Shown here one piece after another: positions 11,280-19,900 of a stretch of DNA of 64,000 nucleotides. Location of the stretch: NCBI GenBank assembly GCA_963717935.1, contig CAVQXP010000003.1, forward strand, positions 56,819 to 120,818. The letters are read 5' to 3'. Numbering within the stretch: position 1 is the stretch's first letter; each line of letters begins with the position of its first letter. The translations under genes were made by a program, and so were the position numbers. Source of the DNA: Candidatus Eiseniibacteriota bacterium. Its GTDB lineage: Bacteria > Eisenbacteria > RBG-16-71-46. The notes beneath the pieces are model-generated. The model was not told where the DNA came from. It saw nothing but the letters and a program-made list of their open reading frames with translations, and did no database searches.

Positions 11280-11519
11280 ATGGCAGCCACCCGTATCACC
11301 GTGAAGAACGATGGCTCCCTGCGAGTCGAGGGCGACTTCGAGATCGTGGACCCGGAAGGCCGCCTTTTCGGCCTCGCGGGCCGCCCTCACGTGAGCCTGT
11401 GCCGCTGCGGCCAGTCGCTGAAGAAGCCGTTCTGCGACGGGGCGCACAAGGCCTCCGGGTTCCGCTCGCAGGTCGTCGCCATCGACCTCGAACCGCCTGC
11501 CCCGAAACCCGGATCGTGA
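11280..11519 (+). CDS. CDGSH iron-sulfur domain protein
   Basis: SLCRCGQSLKKPFCDGAH motif; GGAGG RBS. Confidence 0.92.
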   Translation: MAATRITVKNDGSLRVEGDFEIVDPEGRLFGLAGRPHVSLCRCGQSLKKPFCDGAHKASGFRSQVVAIDLEPPAPKPGS

Positions 11520-11532
11520 CACGGAGGCCCCG

Positions 11533-12484
11533 ATGAGACGCCCCGTCCTGCTCCTCGTCCTGGTGTGCCTGGCCATGGCCGCCGCTCCCGCTGCCCGTGC
11601 CCAGCGGACCTTCGACGAGGTCGTGATCACGCCCACGAAGCTGACCGATGGCCTCTGGATGATCACCGGGGCCGGCGGGAACCTGCTGGTCTGCGCGGGC
11701 CCGGACGGCGTGCTGCTGGTGGACGCCCAGTACGGGCCGCTCGCGGCGAAGATCCTCGCCGTGGTGGACTCGCTCTCCGGCGGCCGTCCACTGCGCTTCG
11801 TCCTCAACACCCACTACCACGGCGACCATGTCGGCGGCGACTCGGCCATGGCCGCGGCGGGCGCGACCATCGTGGCGCACGCGAACGCGCGGCGGCGGAT
11901 GAGCGCGGACCGGTTCAACAAGACCCTGGGGGCCACCACGAAGGCGGTGCCGGCCGCGGGGCTGCCCGTGCTGACCTTCGGCGACTCGCTGACCTTCCAC
12001 CTGAATGGCCTGGAGATCCGCGTCCTGCACCTGCCGCCCGGCCACACCGACGGGGACGCGGTGGTCTGGATCCCGGGCGCGAACGTGCTGCACACGGGCG
12101 ACCTGTTCTTCAACGGCACCTACCCGGTGATCGACGCCTCGGCCGGTGGCTCCATCGAGGGGATGCTCCGCGTCCTCGACCCACTGCTGCCCATCGTGAC
12201 GTTCACGACGAAGGTCGTTCCCGGGCATGGTCCGCTCGCCGACCGCGCCGCGCTGCTGCGCTTCCGGGGCATGCTCCTGGCGGTGCGCGACCGCGTGACG
12301 GCGCTCGTGAAGGACGGCCGCACCCTCGGGCAGGTGATGGCGGCGAAGCCCCTCGCCGACCTGGACCGGGATCTGGGGCACCGGCTTCATGACGCCCGAA
12401 GCCTTCCTGCAGATCGCCTACCAGGACCTCTCTCGGGAGCCGCCGCCCCCGCTGCCCGACCTCCTCCACGACCACCACCACTGA
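11533..12484 (+). CDS. Secreted MBL-fold metallo-hydrolase (cyclase-like); apparent +1 frameshift near 12369
   Basis: Signal peptide, NTHYHGDHVGG, GHTDGD, HTGDLFF, PGHG; removing one G gives IWGTGFMTPEAFLQIAYQDLS...HDHHH* ending at 12484. Confidence 0.85.
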
Positions 12485-12493
12485 GCGTCGCGC

Positions 12494-12865
12494 ATGCGCG
12501 CGTTCCTGCTGCTCCTGCCCGCCGGCGTGAGCGCGCTCCTCCTGGGCGCGCACTTCCTGCGCCGGGACGATCCCGGCCTGGTGGTCATCAGCCTGGTGCT
12601 CTTCGGGCTGCTCTTCGTGCGCCGGCTGTGGGCCGCGCGCCTCGTGCAGCTCGGACTGCTCGCGGGCGCGCTCGAGTGGCTGCGCACGCTGGCGGCACTG
12701 CTCCCCGCACGACGTGCCGCGGGCGAGCCCTGGATGCGCCTGGCCGCGATCCTCGGCGGGGTGGCGCTGCTGGCGCTGCTGGGCGCGGCGCTCCTCGAGA
12801 CCCGCAGGCTCAGGGAGCGCTACCGCGGCCCCCGGCCCGCCGGGCGGGTCGGAGGAGCCCGCTGA
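12494..12865 (+). CDS. Small membrane protein
   Basis: 123 aa, four hydrophobic segments, directly after the MBL gene. Confidence 0.65.
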   Translation: MRAFLLLLPAGVSALLLGAHFLRRDDPGLVVISLVLFGLLFVRRLWAARLVQLGLLAGALEWLRTLAALLPARRAAGEPWMRLAAILGGVALLALLGAALLETRRLRERYRGPRPAGRVGGAR

Positions 12866-12904
12866 GCCGGTAGCCGCTTCCACCCGCCCGGGGCGGCTGG
12901 AACC

Positions 12905-13192
12905 TCAGGCGTCGAGGCGGACGGAGCAGCGACCGAAGCGGCCGAAGGCGAAGCTCAGCCGGGCGGGATGCGCGCGAGCCGCCAGCACGTCCCGATGGAC
13001 GTAGAGGGCGATCCCGCCGGCGTCCAGGCACTCATGCCCGGCGGGGTCTTCCGGGATCTCGAGCGACCCGACCGGGCCGCGCTCGACCGTTCATCAGCCG
13101 TGCATGATCGCCTGGAGCGAGACATACAGTGCCCCGCCCCGGGCGGCGATGTACTCCCGGAGTTCCTCGGACTCGAAGCGGGCGTGTCGCAT
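12905..13192 (-). CDS. Candidate small selenoprotein with two adjacent selenocysteines (CC/Se-motif, HesB-like family)
   Basis: MRHARFESEELREYIAARGGALYVSLQAIMHG-TGA-TGA-TVERGPVGSLEIPEDPAGHECLDAGGIALYVHRDVL...RLSFAFGRFGRCSVRLDA*; 55 of the 61 codons after the TGAs end in G/C; SECIS-like hairpin follows. Confidence 0.75.
13060..13085 (-). promoter_or_regulatory. Putative bacterial SECIS hairpin
   Basis: mRNA CGAGCGCGGCCC-GGUC-GGGUCGCUCG; G-led apical loop 17 and 20 nt after the two UGAs. Confidence 0.65.
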
Positions 13193-13263
13193 GGCGGTCA
13201 GCATACCGGAAACCGCGGGGTGGGGCGATTCCCATCCGGGTCGTGCGCTCCTTCGTCTCCGGT

Positions 13264-14163
13264 CTAGGCCCGGCCCTGACGACATGGCTGCGCGCGCCTC
13301 ACGCTTTCCCACTGGATGGTGGGATGCACGATGCCGAAGCGCTCAGAAAGGTCGTGAGCGATGCGCGAGGTGAGATCGTCGTCGAAGGTCGCGCGGTCCG
13401 TGACGAGGTGTGCCGTGAGCGCGGTCTCGGTGGTGCTCATGGCCCAGATGTGGAAGTCGTGCACGTCGACGACGCCCGGCACGGCCTCGAGATAGCCCCG
13501 GACCGCCACCGGGTCGATCCGGCCGGGTACGGCGTCCATGGCCAGATCGAGCGACTCCCGCAGGATCCTCCAGGCACCGACCACGATGAGCGCGCTCACC
13601 AGCAGGCTGACGACAGGGTCGAGCCACGGCCAGCGGGTGAAGACCATGGCCACGCCGGCGAGGACGACTCCGAGGGAGACGGCTGCATCCGCCACGAGAT
13701 GCGAGGCGGCGGCGCGCACGTTCAGATCGTCGCGACGGCCACGTCCCAGGAGCCAGGCGCTCAGACCGTTCACGAGGATGCCGAGCGAGGCCACGGCGAT
13801 GACCGTGGGCGCGGCGACCGGCCCCGGATGACGAAGCCGCTGCACCGCTTCGAGCGCGACGGCGCCCACCGCGATCAGCAGCACGACGGCGTTGGCCAGC
13901 GCCGCGAGGATGGTGGAGCGCCGCAGACCATAGGTGCGCCGGGTGCTGGGCGCGCGTCGGGCCAGGAGGATCGCGCCCCAGGCGAGCAGCAGGCCGAGCA
14001 CGTCGCCGAGGTTGTGACCGGCGTCCGAGAGCAGTGCGAGGGAGCCGGACCGGAACCCGAACACGACCTCGAAGACGACGAAGGTGACGTTGAGCCCCAC
14101 CGCCACGAGGAAGGCGGTGCGGACCCCGTCCGCGGCGGGCGGATGTGGATGGTCATGCGTCAT
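13264..14163 (-). CDS. Cation diffusion facilitator (CzcD/ZitB-like)
   Basis: SLALLSDAGHNLGDV, NVRAAASHLVAD, DVHDFHIWAMST, HPTIQWE. Confidence 0.92.
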   Translation of the reverse strand: MTHDHPHPPAADGVRTAFLVAVGLNVTFVVFEVVFGFRSGSLALLSDAGHNLGDVLGLLLAWGAILLARRAPSTRRTYGLRRSTILAALANAVVLLIAVGAVALEAVQRLRHPGPVAAPTVIAVASLGILVNGLSAWLLGRGRRDDLNVRAAASHLVADAAVSLGVVLAGVAMVFTRWPWLDPVVSLLVSALIVVGAWRILRESLDLAMDAVPGRIDPVAVRGYLEAVPGVVDVHDFHIWAMSTTETALTAHLVTDRATFDDDLTSRIAHDLSERFGIVHPTIQWESVRRAQPCRQGRA

Positions 14164-14196
14164 GTCGTCCTCGCGGCCGGCGCGCCGCCCGCGGAT

Positions 14197-14442
14197 TCAC
14201 GCGGTCGCTCCGGACAGGATCTCCTTCAACTGTTCCACCGAGGGCACGCGTCCGGCGAACTTGAGCTCGCCATCGACGACGAGCCCGGGCGTGGACAGGA
14301 TGCGATAGCCCAGGATGACGTTGAGGTCGGTGATCTTCTCGAGCTCGCAGTCGAGCCCGAGCTCCTTCACGGCGCGCTCGGTGTTCCGGTAGAGCCGTTC
14401 GCAGTTGGCGCATCCGGGGCCCAGGACCTCGATCCGGGTCAT
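14197..14442 (-). CDS. Small thioredoxin/glutaredoxin-like protein (MTH895/TM0996 type)
   Basis: IEVLGPGCANC...STPGLVVDGELKFAGRVPS; AAGGAG RBS. Confidence 0.9.
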   Translation of the reverse strand: MTRIEVLGPGCANCERLYRNTERAVKELGLDCELEKITDLNVILGYRILSTPGLVVDGELKFAGRVPSVEQLKEILSGATA

Positions 14443-14489
14443 CTTCGTCTCCTTTCGGAAGAGCCCTCCGGACGGCGGAGGGCCCCGCG

Positions 14490-15524
14490 TCACATCAGCC
14501 AGTTGAACAGGTAGCCCACCAGGACGATCCCGACCGTGACCACCCCGAGGAACACCGCGATCAGCGCGGGTTTGAGCACCTTCCGCAGGATGATGGTCTC
14601 CGGCAGCGACAGCGCGATCACCGCCATCATGAACGCGAGCACCGTCCCCAGCGCGGCGCCCTTCTCGAGCAGGGCATGCACGACCGGGATGATCCCGGCC
14701 GCGTTCGAGTACATCGGCACGCCGATGAGCACGGCGAGCGGCACCGACCACCAGGCCCCCCGGCCCATGATGGACGCCATGAAGTTCTCGGGCACCCACC
14801 CGTGGATGCCGGCGCCCACGGCGATGCCGATCAGGACGTAGGGCCAGACCTTGCCCACGATGTCGCGCACCGCCTCGAGCCCGCGGCCCAGGCGCTCCTC
14901 CCACGTCGTCCGGTGTTCGGGCAGCCCGGCCTCGCCCGCGTCCATCTGATAGACCCAGGGCTCGACGTGGCGCTCGAGCCGCAGGCGACCGATGACCCAG
15001 CCCGCGACGATGGCCACGGTCAGGCCGGTCCCGAGGTAGAGGGCCGCCACCTTCCAGCCGAACAGCCCGAACAGCAGGGCGAGCGCGACCTCGTTCACCA
15101 TGGGGGCCGAGATCAGGAAGGAGAACGTCACGCCCAGCGGGATGCCCGCGGTCAGGAAGCCGATGAACAGCGGCACCGCCGAGCACGAGCAGAACGGCGT
15201 CACGATGCCGAGGGCGGCGGCCAGCACGTTGCCCACCGACTCGGCCTTGCCCGCGAGGATGGCGCGCGTGCGCTCGGGCGTGAAGAACGAGCGCACCACG
15301 CCGACGCCGAACACGACCAGCGTCAGGAGCAGGAGCACCTTGGGTGTCTCGTAGACGAAGAACTCGACCGCGCTGGCGAGGTGCGTGCCGGCGTCGAGCC
15401 CCAGCAGGTCGCGCGTGAACCACGCGGCCGCCTGCTGGAGCGCGCCGTAGAGCGCGACCCAGAGCAACAGGGCGCCCGCCAGGGAGAGGAGCAGGCGCGG
15501 AAGCCGCGCCGGGGGCCTGCTCAT
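14490..15524 (-). CDS. ArsP/DUF318-family permease
   Basis: VTPFCSCSAVP, SAPMVNE, GVPMYSNAAG, ALSLPE motifs. Confidence 0.88.
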   Translation of the reverse strand: MSRPPARLPRLLLSLAGALLLWVALYGALQQAAAWFTRDLLGLDAGTHLASAVEFFVYETPKVLLLLTLVVFGVGVVRSFFTPERTRAILAGKAESVGNVLAAALGIVTPFCSCSAVPLFIGFLTAGIPLGVTFSFLISAPMVNEVALALLFGLFGWKVAALYLGTGLTVAIVAGWVIGRLRLERHVEPWVYQMDAGEAGLPEHRTTWEERLGRGLEAVRDIVGKVWPYVLIGIAVGAGIHGWVPENFMASIMGRGAWWSVPLAVLIGVPMYSNAAGIIPVVHALLEKGAALGTVLAFMMAVIALSLPETIILRKVLKPALIAVFLGVVTVGIVLVGYLFNWLM

Positions 15525-15531
15525 CGGGGTC

Positions 15532-16599
15532 TCACGCCGCCGGCTCGCGGAACCAGCGCCGCCGCAACCACAGCGCCACGTTCACCAGGCCGATCAGGGC
15601 CGGCACCTCGACCAGCGGCCCGATCACCGCCGCGAAGGCGGCGCCGTGGTGGATGCCGAAGGTCGCGACCGCCACGGCGATGGCCAGCTCGAAGTTGTTC
15701 GAGGCGGCGGTGAACGAGAGCGTCGCCGACTGCGGGTAGCTCGCGCCCACCCGCTTGCTCATGAAGAACGAGACCATGAACATGACGACGAAGTAGATGA
15801 GCAGCGGGATGGCGATGCGCACCACGTCGAAGGGCAGCTGGACGATCTTCTCGCCCTTGAGCGAGAACATCACGACGATGGTGAAGAGCAGGGCGATCAG
15901 CGTGATCGGGCTGATCTTCGGGATGAACCGGCGCTGGTACCAGTCCCTTCCCTTCGCCCGCAGCAGCGCGAAGCGCGTGATGATCCCGGCCAGGAACGGA
16001 ATGCCGAGGTAGATGAAGACGCTCCGGGCGATCTCGGCCATCGTGATGTTCACGGCCACGCCCTTCAATCCGAGCCAGCCCGGCGCGAGCGTGATGAAGA
16101 CGTAGGCGTAGAGCGGGAAGAAGAGCACCTGGAAGACCGAGTTGAAGGCGACCAGGCCCGCGCAGTACTCGCTGTCGCCCCGGGCCAGGTCGTTCCAGAC
16201 GATGACCATGGCGATGCAGCGCGCCAGGCCGATCAGGATGAGCCCCACCATGTACTCGGGCTGGTCCCGCAGGAAGAGCACGGCGAGGCCGAACATGAGG
16301 ATCGGGCCGACCACCCAGTTCTGCACCAGCGAGAGCGCGAGCACCCGCCCATCGCGGAAGACGCGGCCCATCTCCTCGTAGCGGACCTTCGCCAGCGGCG
16401 GGTACATCATGAGGATGAGCCCGATGGCGATGGGGATGGACGTGGTGCCGGCGTTGAAGCGGTTCAGGAAGGGCACCAGGCCGGGGAACCGCCAGCCACC
16501 GCCGACGCCGACGGCCATGGCGAGGAAGATCCAGAGCGTCAGGTAGCGGTCGAGGAAGGAGAGCCGGCCGGTGACTCCGGCAGGGGAGGGCTCAGGCAT
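15532..16599 (-). CDS. arsB: ACR3-family arsenite efflux transporter
   Basis: [48 protein letters not shown]. Confidence 0.95.
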
Positions 16600-17068
16600 G
16601 CGAAGGTCCGCTTCGGCGGGAGGGCGCGCGCGCGGGCGATGCGCGCCGGGCCCGGCGGGCGGGGCGGGGTGCCGCGACCTGCGCGAGACGCGACGGCGCC
16701 CGCCGGGCCGGTGGCAGGGCGCACAGCGCCTCGACCGGGACGGCCTTCACGCTGCGCAACCGGCGGCGGTCCTCGAGGATGCGGGGCTCCCGGTCGAGCG
16801 GCCCGCGCAGCAGGGCCAGCACCGCGCGGGCGTAGGGGTTGCGCTTCTCCGTGGCGAGCGCGTAGTGGCTCCAGCGGCCGTCGCGCCGGTCGGCCACCAG
16901 TCCCGCGACCCGGAGCAGCGCCAGGTGCTTCGAGACCGTGGAGGGAGCGAGCCCGAGCACGGCCTGCACCTGGCAGACGCACAGCGGGCCGGCCTCGAGC
17001 AGCTTGAGGATGCGCGTGCGGGTCGGGTCGCCGGCGGCCTTGAGCGCCGCCTCGAGCTCAAGCAGCAT
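16592..17068 (-). CDS. arsR: ArsR/SmtB family repressor
   Basis: [17 protein letters not shown] metal site, [27 protein letters not shown]. Confidence 0.9.
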
Positions 17069-17079
17069 GGCCGTCCTTC

Positions 17080-17126
17080 CATTTCGCCATGTGACGAAAT
17101 GTAGTATCATGGCGCGTGGCCGTCAA
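17080..17126 (-). promoter_or_regulatory. sigma70-type promoter overlapping a palindromic ArsR operator
   Basis: TTGACG (17126-17121)-N17-TACATT (17103-17098); inverted repeat CATTTCG-N8-CGAAATG at 17080-17101. Confidence 0.7.
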
Positions 17127-17220
17127 GCGGCTCCGGGTTCGCCGGGCCGTCCGTGCCGCCGCGGTGCCCGAGATCGAGAGGCTGCTCGAGCCCCGAACGC
17201 CGAGTCCAAGGAGGATCCCA

Positions 17221-17622
17221 GTGACAGGTCGCACCGGACGCACCGCGCTGCTGCTCGTGAGCCTGGTGCTCATCGCTGCCGTGCCCGCTCTCGCCCGCAA
17301 GGCCCCGAAGCCCGCGCCGCCCGCCGCGCTCCCGCGCCTCCTGGACCTGGGCGCGACGAAGTGCATCCCGTGCAAGCGCATGGCCCCCATCCTCGAGGCG
17401 CTCAAGGTGGATTACGCCGGCGCCGTGGACGTGCAGTTCATCGATGTCTGGCAGAACCCGCAGGCCGGCAGGCCGTACGGCATCCGGCTGATCCCCACGC
17501 AGATCTTCTTCGACCGGGCGGGCCGCGAGCGGTTCCGGCACGAGGGCTTCTACGCCCGCAAGGAGATCGAGCGGATCTTCAAGGACAGTCTCGGCGTGGC
17601 CCTGCGCCCCGCGGCGAAGTAG
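17221..17622 (+). CDS. Exported thioredoxin-family protein
   Basis: Signal peptide; DLGATKCIPCKRM; IRLIPTQIFFD; RHEGF; GTG start after AAGGAGGA. Confidence 0.88.
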   Translation: MTGRTGRTALLLVSLVLIAAVPALARKAPKPAPPAALPRLLDLGATKCIPCKRMAPILEALKVDYAGAVDVQFIDVWQNPQAGRPYGIRLIPTQIFFDRAGRERFRHEGFYARKEIERIFKDSLGVALRPAAK

Positions 17623-17638
17623 CGGGACCGGGGGACGC

Positions 17639-18337
17639 GTGGACGTCCTGGAGGGTCTGAGCGAGCAGCTCGCCTCGGTCATCGCCCACAGTCCCGCGCT
17701 GGCGCCGCTGGCCGCGTTCCTCGGCGGCGCGCTCACCGCGCTCAACCCGTGCGTGCTGGCGATGGTCCCGCTCATGGTCGGCTTCTCGGCCGGCCTGGTC
17801 GGGCGTGGCGCGACGGGGCGCCCCTGGCGGCGCACCCTGGGTTTCTCCCTGCTCTTCGTCGGGGGCTTCGCGCTCGAGCTGGCGCTGCTCTTCACCGTCT
17901 TCTCCGGCGCGACGGCGGTCCTGAGCGCGCCCTGGTGGCGCTACGTGCTGGTGGCCGTGTGCGCCGTCACCGCGCTGCACCTGCTCGGCTGGCTGCGCCT
18001 GCCGTCGATCCCCCTGCCGCCGGCCGCCGCGCGGGCCGCGGGCGCGCTGGGCGCGCTCACGCTCGGCTTCGTCTTCGGGATCGTCTCGCTGCCGTGCACG
18101 GGGCCGGTGCTGCTGCTGCTGCTGGCCCTGGTCCCGCGGATCGGCGCGGCCGCGGCGGGCGGCCTGCTGTTCGCCTACGGGCTCGGGCACTCGCTGCTGC
18201 TGCTCGTGGCCGGTACCTCGGTCGGCGCGGCCGCGGCGCTCGCCCGCCCGGGCCGTCTCCAGACCGCGACCCGCTGGGTGCGCGTGGTCGCGGCCCTCCT
18301 GATCCTCGCGGGCGGGGCCTGGTTGTTCACGCACTGA
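17639..18337 (+). CDS. CcdA/DsbD-like transmembrane disulfide reductase
   Basis: LNPCVLAMVP and SLPCTGPVL paired PC motifs; YGLGH; six TM segments. Confidence 0.85.
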   Translation: MDVLEGLSEQLASVIAHSPALAPLAAFLGGALTALNPCVLAMVPLMVGFSAGLVGRGATGRPWRRTLGFSLLFVGGFALELALLFTVFSGATAVLSAPWWRYVLVAVCAVTALHLLGWLRLPSIPLPPAAARAAGALGALTLGFVFGIVSLPCTGPVLLLLLALVPRIGAAAAGGLLFAYGLGHSLLLLVAGTSVGAAAALARPGRLQTATRWVRVVAALLILAGGAWLFTH

Positions 18338-18508
18338 GGCGCCCGCCGGCCGGACCGTCTCCTGCTCCTTCACGGACTCCGACGCCACGGCCGGCAGTCC
18401 CGGGCCGCGCAGCCTGATCTTCGTCGCTGGCGCAGCGGGGGTCTCTGCTATCATGCCGCCCGTCCCGCGCTCCGCGGCCGACGCCAGGCCGGGTCTCGAC
18501 GAGCACGG

Positions 18509-19480
18509 ATGAGCCTGGGGAGGTGCATGACCTTGAGTGCCGCACCGGATGACGGCCCGGCGGCGGGCCGGGCCCCTGCGGCGGCGCGCGCCGCGACCGT
18601 CCGGTCCCTGCAGCAGGGCCGCGGATCGGGCACCCGCAGCGCCGCGGTGTTCCGGCTCACGCGCGCCGAGGAGCGCCGCCTGCTGTCCGCGGCCCGCGGC
18701 GGGGACCGCAGGGCGCTCGACCGGCTGCTTCGGCTGCTGAGCGGGCCCGTATACCGCTTCGGCCGCGGCTTCTGCGGCGACCCGCACGATGCCGAGGACG
18801 TGGCGCAGGTCACGCTGGTCGCGCTCGCTCGCTCGCTGCGTGACTTCCGCGGCGAGTCCTCGCTCACGACCTGGGCCTACACGGTGGCGCGCAACGCCTG
18901 CACCCGGCACCGGCGCCGCGGAGCGCACACGCCCGCGCGACTCGAGTCGCTCGACGCCGGCACGCCCGCCCGCCCGGGCGCGCTCCAGGTCGCGGACCCG
19001 CGCGGGGATCCGCACCGGGCGCTCGAGCGCACGGAACTGCGCGACGCGCTGCGACGGGCCATCGCGGCGCTGCCGCCCTCGCAGCGCGAGGTGCTCGTGC
19101 TGCGCGACGTCGAGGGATTGCCCGCGAAACAGGTGGGGGAGGCCCTGCGGCTCTCGGAGCGCGCGGTCAAGTCACGGCTCCACCGCGCCCGTGTCGCCCT
19201 GCGCGACATGCTCGCGCCGCACGCGCCGCACGCGGCGGCGGCCCCGCGCTGCCCCGACACGGCGCGGCTCGTGAGCCGCTACCTCGAGGGCGAGCTCGAC
19301 CCCGACGCGTGCGCGAAGCTCGAGACCCACGTGAAGAACTGCCCGGACTGCGGCGCGACCTGCGCGACCCTGAGGGACGTGCTCGTCACCTGCCGCTCCT
19401 GGGGAGGCGAGAAGCTGCCCGAGCAGGTCCGCGCGTCGCTCAAGCAGGCCATCCGGCAGGTGGCCCGGGCGGGATCCTGA
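18509..19480 (+). CDS. ECF sigma factor fused to C-terminal zf-HC2 (zinc anti-sigma) domain
   Basis: DAEDVAQ, FRGESSLTTWAY.VARN, AVKSRLHRAR; then YLEGELD...HVKNCPDC; start uncertain. Confidence 0.85.
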   Translation: MSLGRCMTLSAAPDDGPAAGRAPAAARAATVRSLQQGRGSGTRSAAVFRLTRAEERRLLSAARGGDRRALDRLLRLLSGPVYRFGRGFCGDPHDAEDVAQVTLVALARSLRDFRGESSLTTWAYTVARNACTRHRRRGAHTPARLESLDAGTPARPGALQVADPRGDPHRALERTELRDALRRAIAALPPSQREVLVLRDVEGLPAKQVGEALRLSERAVKSRLHRARVALRDMLAPHAPHAAAAPRCPDTARLVSRYLEGELDPDACAKLETHVKNCPDCGATCATLRDVLVTCRSWGGEKLPEQVRASLKQAIRQVARAGS

Positions 19481-19521: not shown

Positions 19522-19885
19522 ATGTCCAGTCGCTCGAAGACCGACCGCCGGCGATTCCTGAAGACCGTCGGCCTGGCCGGGGTCTCGTCGGCGCTCGTCG
19601 CGCCGGCGCTCTCCGGCGCCCAGCTGCCCACGACGGCCGCGCCACCCGCTCCGGCGGCGGCTCCCGCGCCCGCCGACCTGGCGAAGGCCGCAGGCGCCGC
19701 CCGAGGTCGGCGAGGACGCACGCGCCCTCGCCGGGATCATCGAGCGGCGCTGCGGCCGGCACCTCTCGAAGGAGCAGCTGGAATCCATCGCGCGGGACTT
19801 CGACGGCGACCTCAAGGCTCTGAAGCGCATGCGGGAGGTGAAGCTGGGCAACGGCGACGAGCCCGACTTCACCTTCCGGGCGTAG
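19522..19885 (+). CDS. Small Tat-signal protein with GatC/AtzG-like C-terminus; apparent frameshift near 19690-19700
   Basis: DRRRFLK twin-arginine motif; second frame gives LSKEQLESIARDFDGDLKALKRMREVKLGNGDEPDFTFRA*. Confidence 0.65.
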
Positions 19886-19900
19886 GCAGGAGGAACGGCC

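Follow-up and report, generated by a model that had tools for sequence, protein, structure and literature searches.

A gene for a small protein that very likely contains two adjacent selenocysteine (Sec, U) residues lies at the end of an arsenic resistance (ars) cluster in the DNA described here, a window of 64,000 nucleotides from a Candidatus Eiseniibacteriota bacterium (assembly GCA_963717935.1, contig CAVQXP010000003.1, positions 56,819 to 120,818 of the forward strand). We call it the UU gene. The window is contig C3 of genome G000 in our numbering, in which G-numbers denote genomes and L-numbers the loci compared. Sequence comparison supports the initial annotation of the product as a candidate selenoprotein on three counts: the UGA pair is conserved, a hairpin behind it covaries, and Cys or Sec occupies the same positions in sister proteins. 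The clade ranges over the window's phylum, Chloroflexota, Myxococcota, a Firmicutes-type phylum and many sediment metagenomes. A role for the selenium pair in binding trivalent arsenic is put forward tentatively. The features of the gene are:

12905-13192, minus strand: UU gene, last of the cluster; 95-residue protein with a predicted HesB/IscA-like fold, likely Sec-Sec, of a UU clade that is sister to family NF041239
13091-13096, minus strand: tandem in-frame TGA-TGA, codons 33 and 34, aligned with CC, CU, UC or Ux in the sister family
13055-13088, minus strand: hairpin resembling a bacterial Sec insertion sequence (bSECIS), upper stem 13079-13064
13200-13205, minus strand: -10-like hexamer TATGCT, 7 nt before the ATG; predicted leaderless promoter

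A conserved pair of UGA codons

With TGA read as U, and U scored as Cys, the only family match of the open reading frame (ORF) is NF041239 at 38.2 bits, under the cut-off of 40. Twelve further UU homologs score 20.6-34.6 bits or give no match, and none of the 12 reaches 40. Stop-blind profile searches located the gene in 13 of 206 genomes of the window's phylum, where all 15 matches that span the site have two TGA codons; two short fragments that do not span it were excluded. Among 301 Chloroflexota genomes the three strong site-spanning matches likewise have two TGA codons, with one weak 32-column match lacking stops (E 4e-4) and one C-terminal fragment set aside. In the Firmicutes-type phylum to which G210 (Clostridiales) belongs, NF041239 matched 66 of 251 genomes, mostly with one TGA or none; seven weaker two-TGA matches are the UU homologs, and all seven UU-clade matches read UGA-UGA. 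The pair is thereby present in 25 of 25 site-spanning homologs from the stop-blind genome searches. A homolog also occurs in one Myxococcales genome, and the UU profile gave no match in 251 genomes of the phylum of G208.

A metagenome scan for TGATGA plus the hairpin core returned at least 120 matches, and 99 of the 120 listed are homologs by profile score. The pattern requires TGATGA, so these 99 are uninformative about Cys variants. A DNA pattern scan of genome contigs gave four homologs among the 120 matches listed. One protein-database match, P0004, a 548-residue repeat protein, was discarded as spurious, the product of a Cys-rich repeat.

Relative to 12 close homologs, change at the first, second and third codon positions is 0.075, 0.113 and 0.231 upstream of the UGA codons and 0.141, 0.127 and 0.256 downstream; judged by these values both halves of the ORF are under codon-level selection. 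An ATG falls within six codons after the pair in only 7 of the 99 homologs. Protein databases store the gene as separate N- and C-terminal halves. Searches of them gave no full-length Cys form of the UU protein, and each UU-branch member found has UGA at the two positions. No stop-blind match has TAA or TAG in place of either UGA. Sequencing error or decay to a pseudogene was ruled out as the source of TGA-TGA because the pair is conserved down to approximately 25% protein identity, despite indel errors elsewhere in this assembly.

At the two aligned positions, proteins of the sister family NF041239 have CC, CU, UC or just one U. A tree from which roughly half of alignment A3 was omitted groups 44 UU sequences on a single branch, apart from 43 others (support 100/99). 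Tandem paralogs occur in the sister family: L356 (G806:C17) has one CC and one CU copy, and L327 (G795:C21) two UC copies.

Decoding of the pair

The apical GGUC loop of the hairpin lies 17 nt past the second UGA and 20 nt past the first. The available text of a 2026 review (PMC13188914) describes the bSECIS as a loop of 3-9 nt whose first base is G, placed at a distance of 16-37 nt from the UGA on a stem of 4-16 bp, and the hairpin in the window fits this description. Its folding z-score, -0.2 to -1.6, is unremarkable when taken alone. Fifty-one homologs were aligned, of which 38 have the GGUC loop. In these, columns 18 and 33, both third codon positions and neither fixed by the search pattern, are paired in all 38 cases (C-G in 29, G-C in 9), with the caveat that relatedness of the homologs inflates any p-value. 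The covarying codon pairs include Arg CGC with Ser TCG (22 times) as against Arg CGG with Ser TCC (eight times). The remaining 13 of 51 have a GGU loop closed by A-U or G-U. In type-B homologs the CC-GGUC-GG core lies 4 nt further on and in another reading frame, and the presence of one core in two frames points to a constraint at the level of RNA.

G000 possesses selA, selB, selD and tRNA-Sec, all scoring over cut-off. The selD gene (G000:C4:1909300-1910554, plus strand) stands next to tRNA-Sec. Upstream of the part that was matched, its frame contains a TGA within the sequence CSG-U-ASK; its product is likely, from this context, to be a selenoprotein itself. ARAGORN predicted another tRNA with a UCA anticodon, on contig C2. 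This candidate was rejected because its location is within the ORF of a membrane protein, its stems are poorly paired and it has no RF01852 match.

On these comparisons it is highly probable that both UGA codons encode Sec, with SelB using the one hairpin to place Sec at each. Could one of them instead terminate translation, or be read by a near-cognate tRNA, or could the tandem UGA be a selenium-sensing switch for downstream genes? The single hairpin would have to serve two codons whose distances to its upper stem are 11 and 14 nt, and work in Escherichia coli is reported to have found the spacing between UGA and hairpin strict. In addition the ORF overlaps or abuts arsC at L254 and L264, and the databases record two halves. 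Such incomplete decoding is nevertheless quite unlikely given the codon-level selection on both halves, the scarcity of an ATG soon after the pair, the lack of TAA or TAG substitutions among stop-blind matches and the Cys residues at both positions in sister proteins. The UU gene is also last in the window cluster, so a switch there would have no polar target.

The ars cluster and the loss of arsC

The remaining features of the cluster are:

13264-14163, minus strand: CDF-family cation transporter; closest NCBIfam equivalog ZitB, score under the ZitB cut-off
14197-14442, minus strand: MTH895/ArsE-family small thioredoxin (CANC; redox-active disulfide protein 2), TIGR00412 99.5 bits, cut-off 62
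14490-15524, minus strand: ArsP-family permease, PF03773 259 bits
15532-16599, minus strand: Acr3 arsenite exporter, TIGR00832 454, cut-off 283
16580-16599, minus strand: scar of an arsC deletion of approximately 470 nt, relative to G135 and G139
16592-17068, minus strand: ArsR/SmtB repressor, NF033788 87 bits, cut-off 55; CVC motif in the sensing helix
17080-17126, minus strand: predicted arsR promoter TTGACG-17-TACATT with palindrome CATTTCG-N8-CGAAATG, putative ArsR operator
17221-17622, plus strand: CIPC thioredoxin with an N-terminal hydrophobic, signal-like segment, predicted to be exported
17639-18337, plus strand: CcdA/DsbD transmembrane-domain protein, PF02683 41 bits; not ArsG (NF040495 16.6, cut-off 200)

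The initial annotation had described six co-oriented minus-strand genes with an opposite arm of thioredoxin and CcdA genes, and no arsC or arsM in the cluster. All of this is borne out. An arsM homolog is present elsewhere in G000, outside the cluster.

G135 and G139 carry the same cluster at 88-93% identity with approximately 470 extra bases, encoding ArsC, between arsR and acr3. At the junction the acr3 gene of the window opens with the codons that open arsC in G135. Five congeners (G135, G139, G136, G137 and G141) retain arsC in the cluster, and by this comparison the missing arsC is a recent local deletion. No other clear arsC was found in G000, which is 93% complete: PF03960 has no match, and for the one LMWPc protein present the best-scoring assignment is tyrosine phosphatase.

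The initial annotation had suggested that the selenium pair stands in for ArsC or ArsD, and the lack of a clear arsC in G000 would suit that idea. It is very improbable. The five congeners keep arsC, and there is no mutual exclusion, with arsC near 12 and arsD near two of the 55 UU loci surveyed (see below). At two of these loci the UU gene overlaps or nearly abuts arsM and arsC. The occurrence of UU genes beside arsC and arsD in many loci leaves the proposed substitution without support.

Transcription and accessory status of the UU gene

TTGACG-17-TACATT is the only sigma-70-like promoter across 12800-18600 (shuffle mean 0.1), and the palindrome at 17080-17101 overlaps its -10 element. The UU gene has no Shine-Dalgarno (SD) sequence before its ATG and is preceded by the TATGCT hexamer. 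Across G000, 58 of 1188 candidate ATG codons have TANNNT 6-10 nt upstream (8-14 per offset as against 0-6 elsewhere), and only two of these 58 have an SD. The leaderless-type signal is shared by seven of the 12 closest UU homologs; overall an SD is used by 39 of 62.

The position of the gene is also variable. Relative to acr3 or arsP it is co-oriented at 20 of 27 loci, opposite at five and mixed at two. It is cleanly absent between the CDF gene and the next gene in G135, and in G139 it is 5 kb away from the CDF gene, still joined to its downstream flank. Only three of eight genomes of the genus have it. These observations suggest that the UU gene is probably an accessory unit with a leaderless promoter of its own. 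The initial annotation had placed all six genes behind one operator-overlapped promoter. The promoter and its palindrome were found, but the placing of the UU gene behind them was not confirmed: it has its own -10-like hexamer and is inverted, detached or absent in relatives. Independent transcription of the small gene, named beforehand as an observation that would count against the proposal, is thus probable in this genome. No terminator was found between the cluster genes and read-through from the arsR promoter may also contribute.

Four metatranscriptome runs held only relatives, mostly less than 95% alike, and no long piece among those listed covers the UU gene. Two metatranscriptome contigs diverge from the window just past the CDF stop codon. 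DNA runs cover the region in part.

Gene neighbourhoods

Flanks were taken for 80 of the 120 metagenome matches listed. The 46 metagenome loci of at least 2 kb and 15 genome loci reduced to 55 once copies more than 95% identical were dropped. Within 7 kb of these 55 loci are genes for ArsR (27), ArsP (24), ArsE-type thioredoxin (21), Acr3 (17), exported thioredoxin (17), CcdA (16), ArsC (12), ArsF (6), CDF (5), ArsM (4), ArsG (4), ArsD (2) and ArsA (2). Acr3 or ArsP lies within 7 kb at 24 of the 36 loci with at least 5 kb of sequence, compared with none of 14 non-homologous pattern-match controls, which lack every gene of the ars set surveyed. Linkage of the homologs to ars genes had been set beforehand as a test. 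It holds, and the alternative outcome, homologs without ars linkage, is not what is seen. Two operons are compact, with genes that overlap or abut: arsR-acr3-arsM-UU-arsC-arsP at L264 and acr3-arsM-UU-arsC-arsD-arsA at L254.

G139 has two ars clusters, and also two UU genes and a fragment (C1:159312-164461 and 1810840-1821838). In several close relatives the UU gene has as a recurrent neighbour a MacB-like ABC module together with a second ArsR.

The link to ars genes is real but not exclusive. An aldehyde:ferredoxin oxidoreductase (AOR) neighbourhood is a second conserved context of the UU homologs. At L343, L344, L346, L347 and L248 the UU gene stands beside ferredoxin and AOR genes, some with ThiS/MoaD and a [FeFe]-hydrogenase-like gene. 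Other neighbours are CoA-disulfide-reductase-like, AhpC/TSA, rhodanese and cysteine-desulfurase-like genes. Among the single-Sec sisters, thioredoxin or CcdA lies within approximately 1.5 kb at 19 of 30 loci (several confirmed with Pfam), and Acr3, ArsP, ArsC and ArsM were found within that distance at none of the 30. Two of nine loci with Cys-form sisters are in ars clusters.

This distribution bears on a different function, in which the protein would shuttle redox equivalents in a general way, by selenol/diselenide exchange, within chains of thioredoxin, CcdA or disulfide reductase, with ars clusters one host among several, and would protect adjacent thiol-, Fe-S- or tungsten-dependent enzymes. 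The thioredoxin and CcdA genes near sister loci and UU loci fit such a shuttle, as do the copies beside AOR-ferredoxin, CoA-disulfide-reductase-like, AhpC/TSA and rhodanese genes and the likely promoter outside ArsR control. The AOR and thioredoxin/CcdA contexts need no arsenic, which makes the shuttle a close rival. We consider it somewhat unlikely since no other neighbours of the UU clade come close to ars genes in frequency, and two operons show translational coupling of the gene to arsM and arsC.

Fold

A PDB sequence search with the UU protein gave no match. An AlphaFold2 model (nine sequences, U entered as Cys) has a pLDDT of 92.8 and places residues 33 and 34 between the strands formed by residues 21-31 and 35-43. 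The best matches are IscA, SufA and DsrR, at 8-14% identity (Foldseek E 0.022, probability 0.96; VIA-align Z 5.4, root-mean-square deviation 3.1 over 76 aligned residues). The scores are middling, and the top five rows of both fold searches are IscA-like.

IscA and SufA carry a C-terminal CxC that completes three cluster ligands. Among 61 sequences no Cys is invariant other than at positions 33-34, and alignment A3 shows no conservation of a Cys pair at the C-terminus; only some of the homologs retain C89. A canonical A-type Fe-S carrier is therefore unlikely. A broader version has the protein, in the manner of the A-type carriers, convey Fe-S, sulfur or selenium for the repair or maturation of metal clusters that arsenic has damaged, or for the maturation of AOR. 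It draws on the fold matches and on neighbours that include cysteine-desulfurase-like, ThiS/ThiF or AOR genes. It too is an unlikely explanation, in view of the missing Cys pair and the middling Z score.

Possible function of the selenium pair

What, then, might the protein do? The cluster is best explained as a standard ArsR-Acr3-ArsP-thioredoxin-CcdA arrangement that has lost arsC, together with, as an accessory, a UU gene with a likely promoter of its own. The product would be a small cytoplasmic protein with the selenium pair on the exposed turn of a β-hairpin. The vicinal selenols may chelate As(III) or methylarsenite in the way that vicinal dithiols do, the vicinal Cys pairs of ArsD, ArsM and ArsI providing the analogy. 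The Sec-Sec protein would hand arsenic to, or keep reduced, ArsM, ArsC, ArsP or Acr3, and the pair would be reset by thioredoxin-type partners. It would assist the usual enzymes and not replace ArsC or ArsD. Overall we put the probability that the pair on the β-hairpin turn binds trivalent arsenic and assists ArsM, ArsC or the exporters at roughly 0.45.

Several observations weigh against this proposal or the steps leading to it. The case for expression of the UU gene and for Sec insertion is one of sequence comparison. In this assembly selB of G000 (G000:C4:50300-52158, minus strand) has two frameshifts; it is intact in all four relatives checked (G135, G139, G141 and G004). All 22 other UU genomes have selA, 21 of them over cut-off, and its base rates are also high (182 of 206, 76 of 101 and 73 of 101), so that co-occurrence of selA with the UU gene is a weak argument. 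The gene is dispensable, since the cluster is present in G135 and in G136 (96% complete), neither of which gave a UU match. The surveyed loci are related and not independent, and some of the reference proteins were drawn from them. Acr3 and ArsP are missing at 12 of the 36 loci with at least 5 kb. None of the seven UU loci from the phylum of G210 has ars genes, and four of the six with listed ORFs adjoin AOR, as does metagenome locus L248.

The initial annotation had gone further and regarded the module as a selenium-dependent system. That view did not survive the comparison: the rest of the module exists in congeners without the selenium gene and corresponds to a published layout (described below), so the module is not selenium-dependent as a whole.

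Other features of the window

Directly 3′ of ccdA is the gene of an ECF sigma factor that has a zf-HC2 anti-sigma-like zinc finger as a fusion partner (18509-19480, plus strand). It is followed by a small gene with a Tat-signal-like segment (19523-19886, plus strand), before an amidase gene and split by a frameshift near 19700. On the other side of the cluster an MBL-fold metallohydrolase (11533-12484, plus strand) has its C-terminus (…GTGFMTPEAFLQIAYQDLSR…HDHHH) in another frame, the result of a frameshift near 12370 that is probably an assembly indel. A small ORF (11285-11519, plus strand) has a CRCGxSxxKPFCDGxH motif, which we take to resemble that of CDGSH iron-sulfur proteins.

Comparison with known systems

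Apart from the UU gene the module is ordinary, with As(III)/organoarsenical efflux genes and an arm of thioredoxin and CcdA, and of a known layout. An ars arrangement of ArsR, exporter, thioredoxin and CcdA along with redox-active disulfide protein 2 is published (PMC2963123), and the window cluster conforms in having ArsR, an As(III) exporter and all three redox genes together, with transporters of the acr3/arsP type in both. It departs from that layout in two respects. ArsC is usually present there, in seven of eight cases, and is deleted here; and the available text of that paper mentions no HesB-like or selenoprotein gene ('HesB' does not occur in it). The likeness to the organoarsenical system ArsEFG, as named in NCBIfam, is partial. 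Next to arsP the window has a thioredoxin of the ArsE family and a membrane protein with the CcdA fold, but by score the exported thioredoxin is not ArsF (no NF040494 match; E 0.09 against an ArsF-like protein) and the CcdA protein falls far short of ArsG. True ArsF and ArsG are present in some homologous loci. The ars1 operon of Bacillus sp. CDB3 includes a HesB-like gene of unknown function, orf7, that is similar by description only and is not described as a selenoprotein in the available part of its report (PMC4562236).

The closest relatives of the UU protein are those of NF041239, which share its length of approximately 90-100 residues, its predicted architecture, the position of the chalcogen pair and the frequent thioredoxin and CcdA neighbours; some CC members sit in ars clusters. 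The UU protein differs in scoring under the family cut-off, and its clade in branching separately. Table 1 of PMC13188914 lists NF041239 with a single Sec, as 'CxxU', and the available text of that review, which tabulates 119 prokaryotic selenoprotein families, includes no UU motif. Motifs of the CU, UC and CC type are discussed in the available text of a preprint by Haft and Gwadz (10.1101/2022.07.06.499078), and nothing relevant appears in the accessible parts of PMC13326102, PMC2398784, PMC12013277 and 10.1101/2022.01.25.477449. The literature searched holds no report of a bacterial UU protein, with the caveat that Haft and Tolstoy 2025 (mSystems), the comment on NF041239, BSepDB entries or bioRxiv supplements could contain one. 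We consider it fairly probable that a widespread bacterial clade with obligate Sec-Sec at consecutive UGA codons, one in-frame SECIS and a putative role as arsenic trap or shuttle inside ars operons has so far gone unannotated. Gene callers split the UU gene into two hypothetical halves, which at present hides from view a gene that recurs in the ars clusters of sediment bacteria.

A predicted adjacent Sec-Sec pair is known from an algal PDI_e with the motif GUGUU, claimed by its authors as the first case (PMC7539508). The available account describes a eukaryotic protein with a thioredoxin fold and a SECIS in the 3′ UTR, whereas the UU gene is bacterial and an in-frame hairpin would serve both codons. 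Sec insertion in bacteria depends on a hairpin that follows the UGA with fixed spacing, and two Sec codons on one hairpin are for this reason unexpected. If the assignment is correct, prokaryotes would have in the UU protein their first case of two neighbouring Sec residues, and the handling of back-to-back UGA codons by SelB would have a natural test, for which the clade provides dozens of natural examples with two hairpin spacings. It would also offer a natural vicinal diselenol, whose binding of arsenic and soft metals can be set against that of the sister-family proteins with CC, CU or UC.

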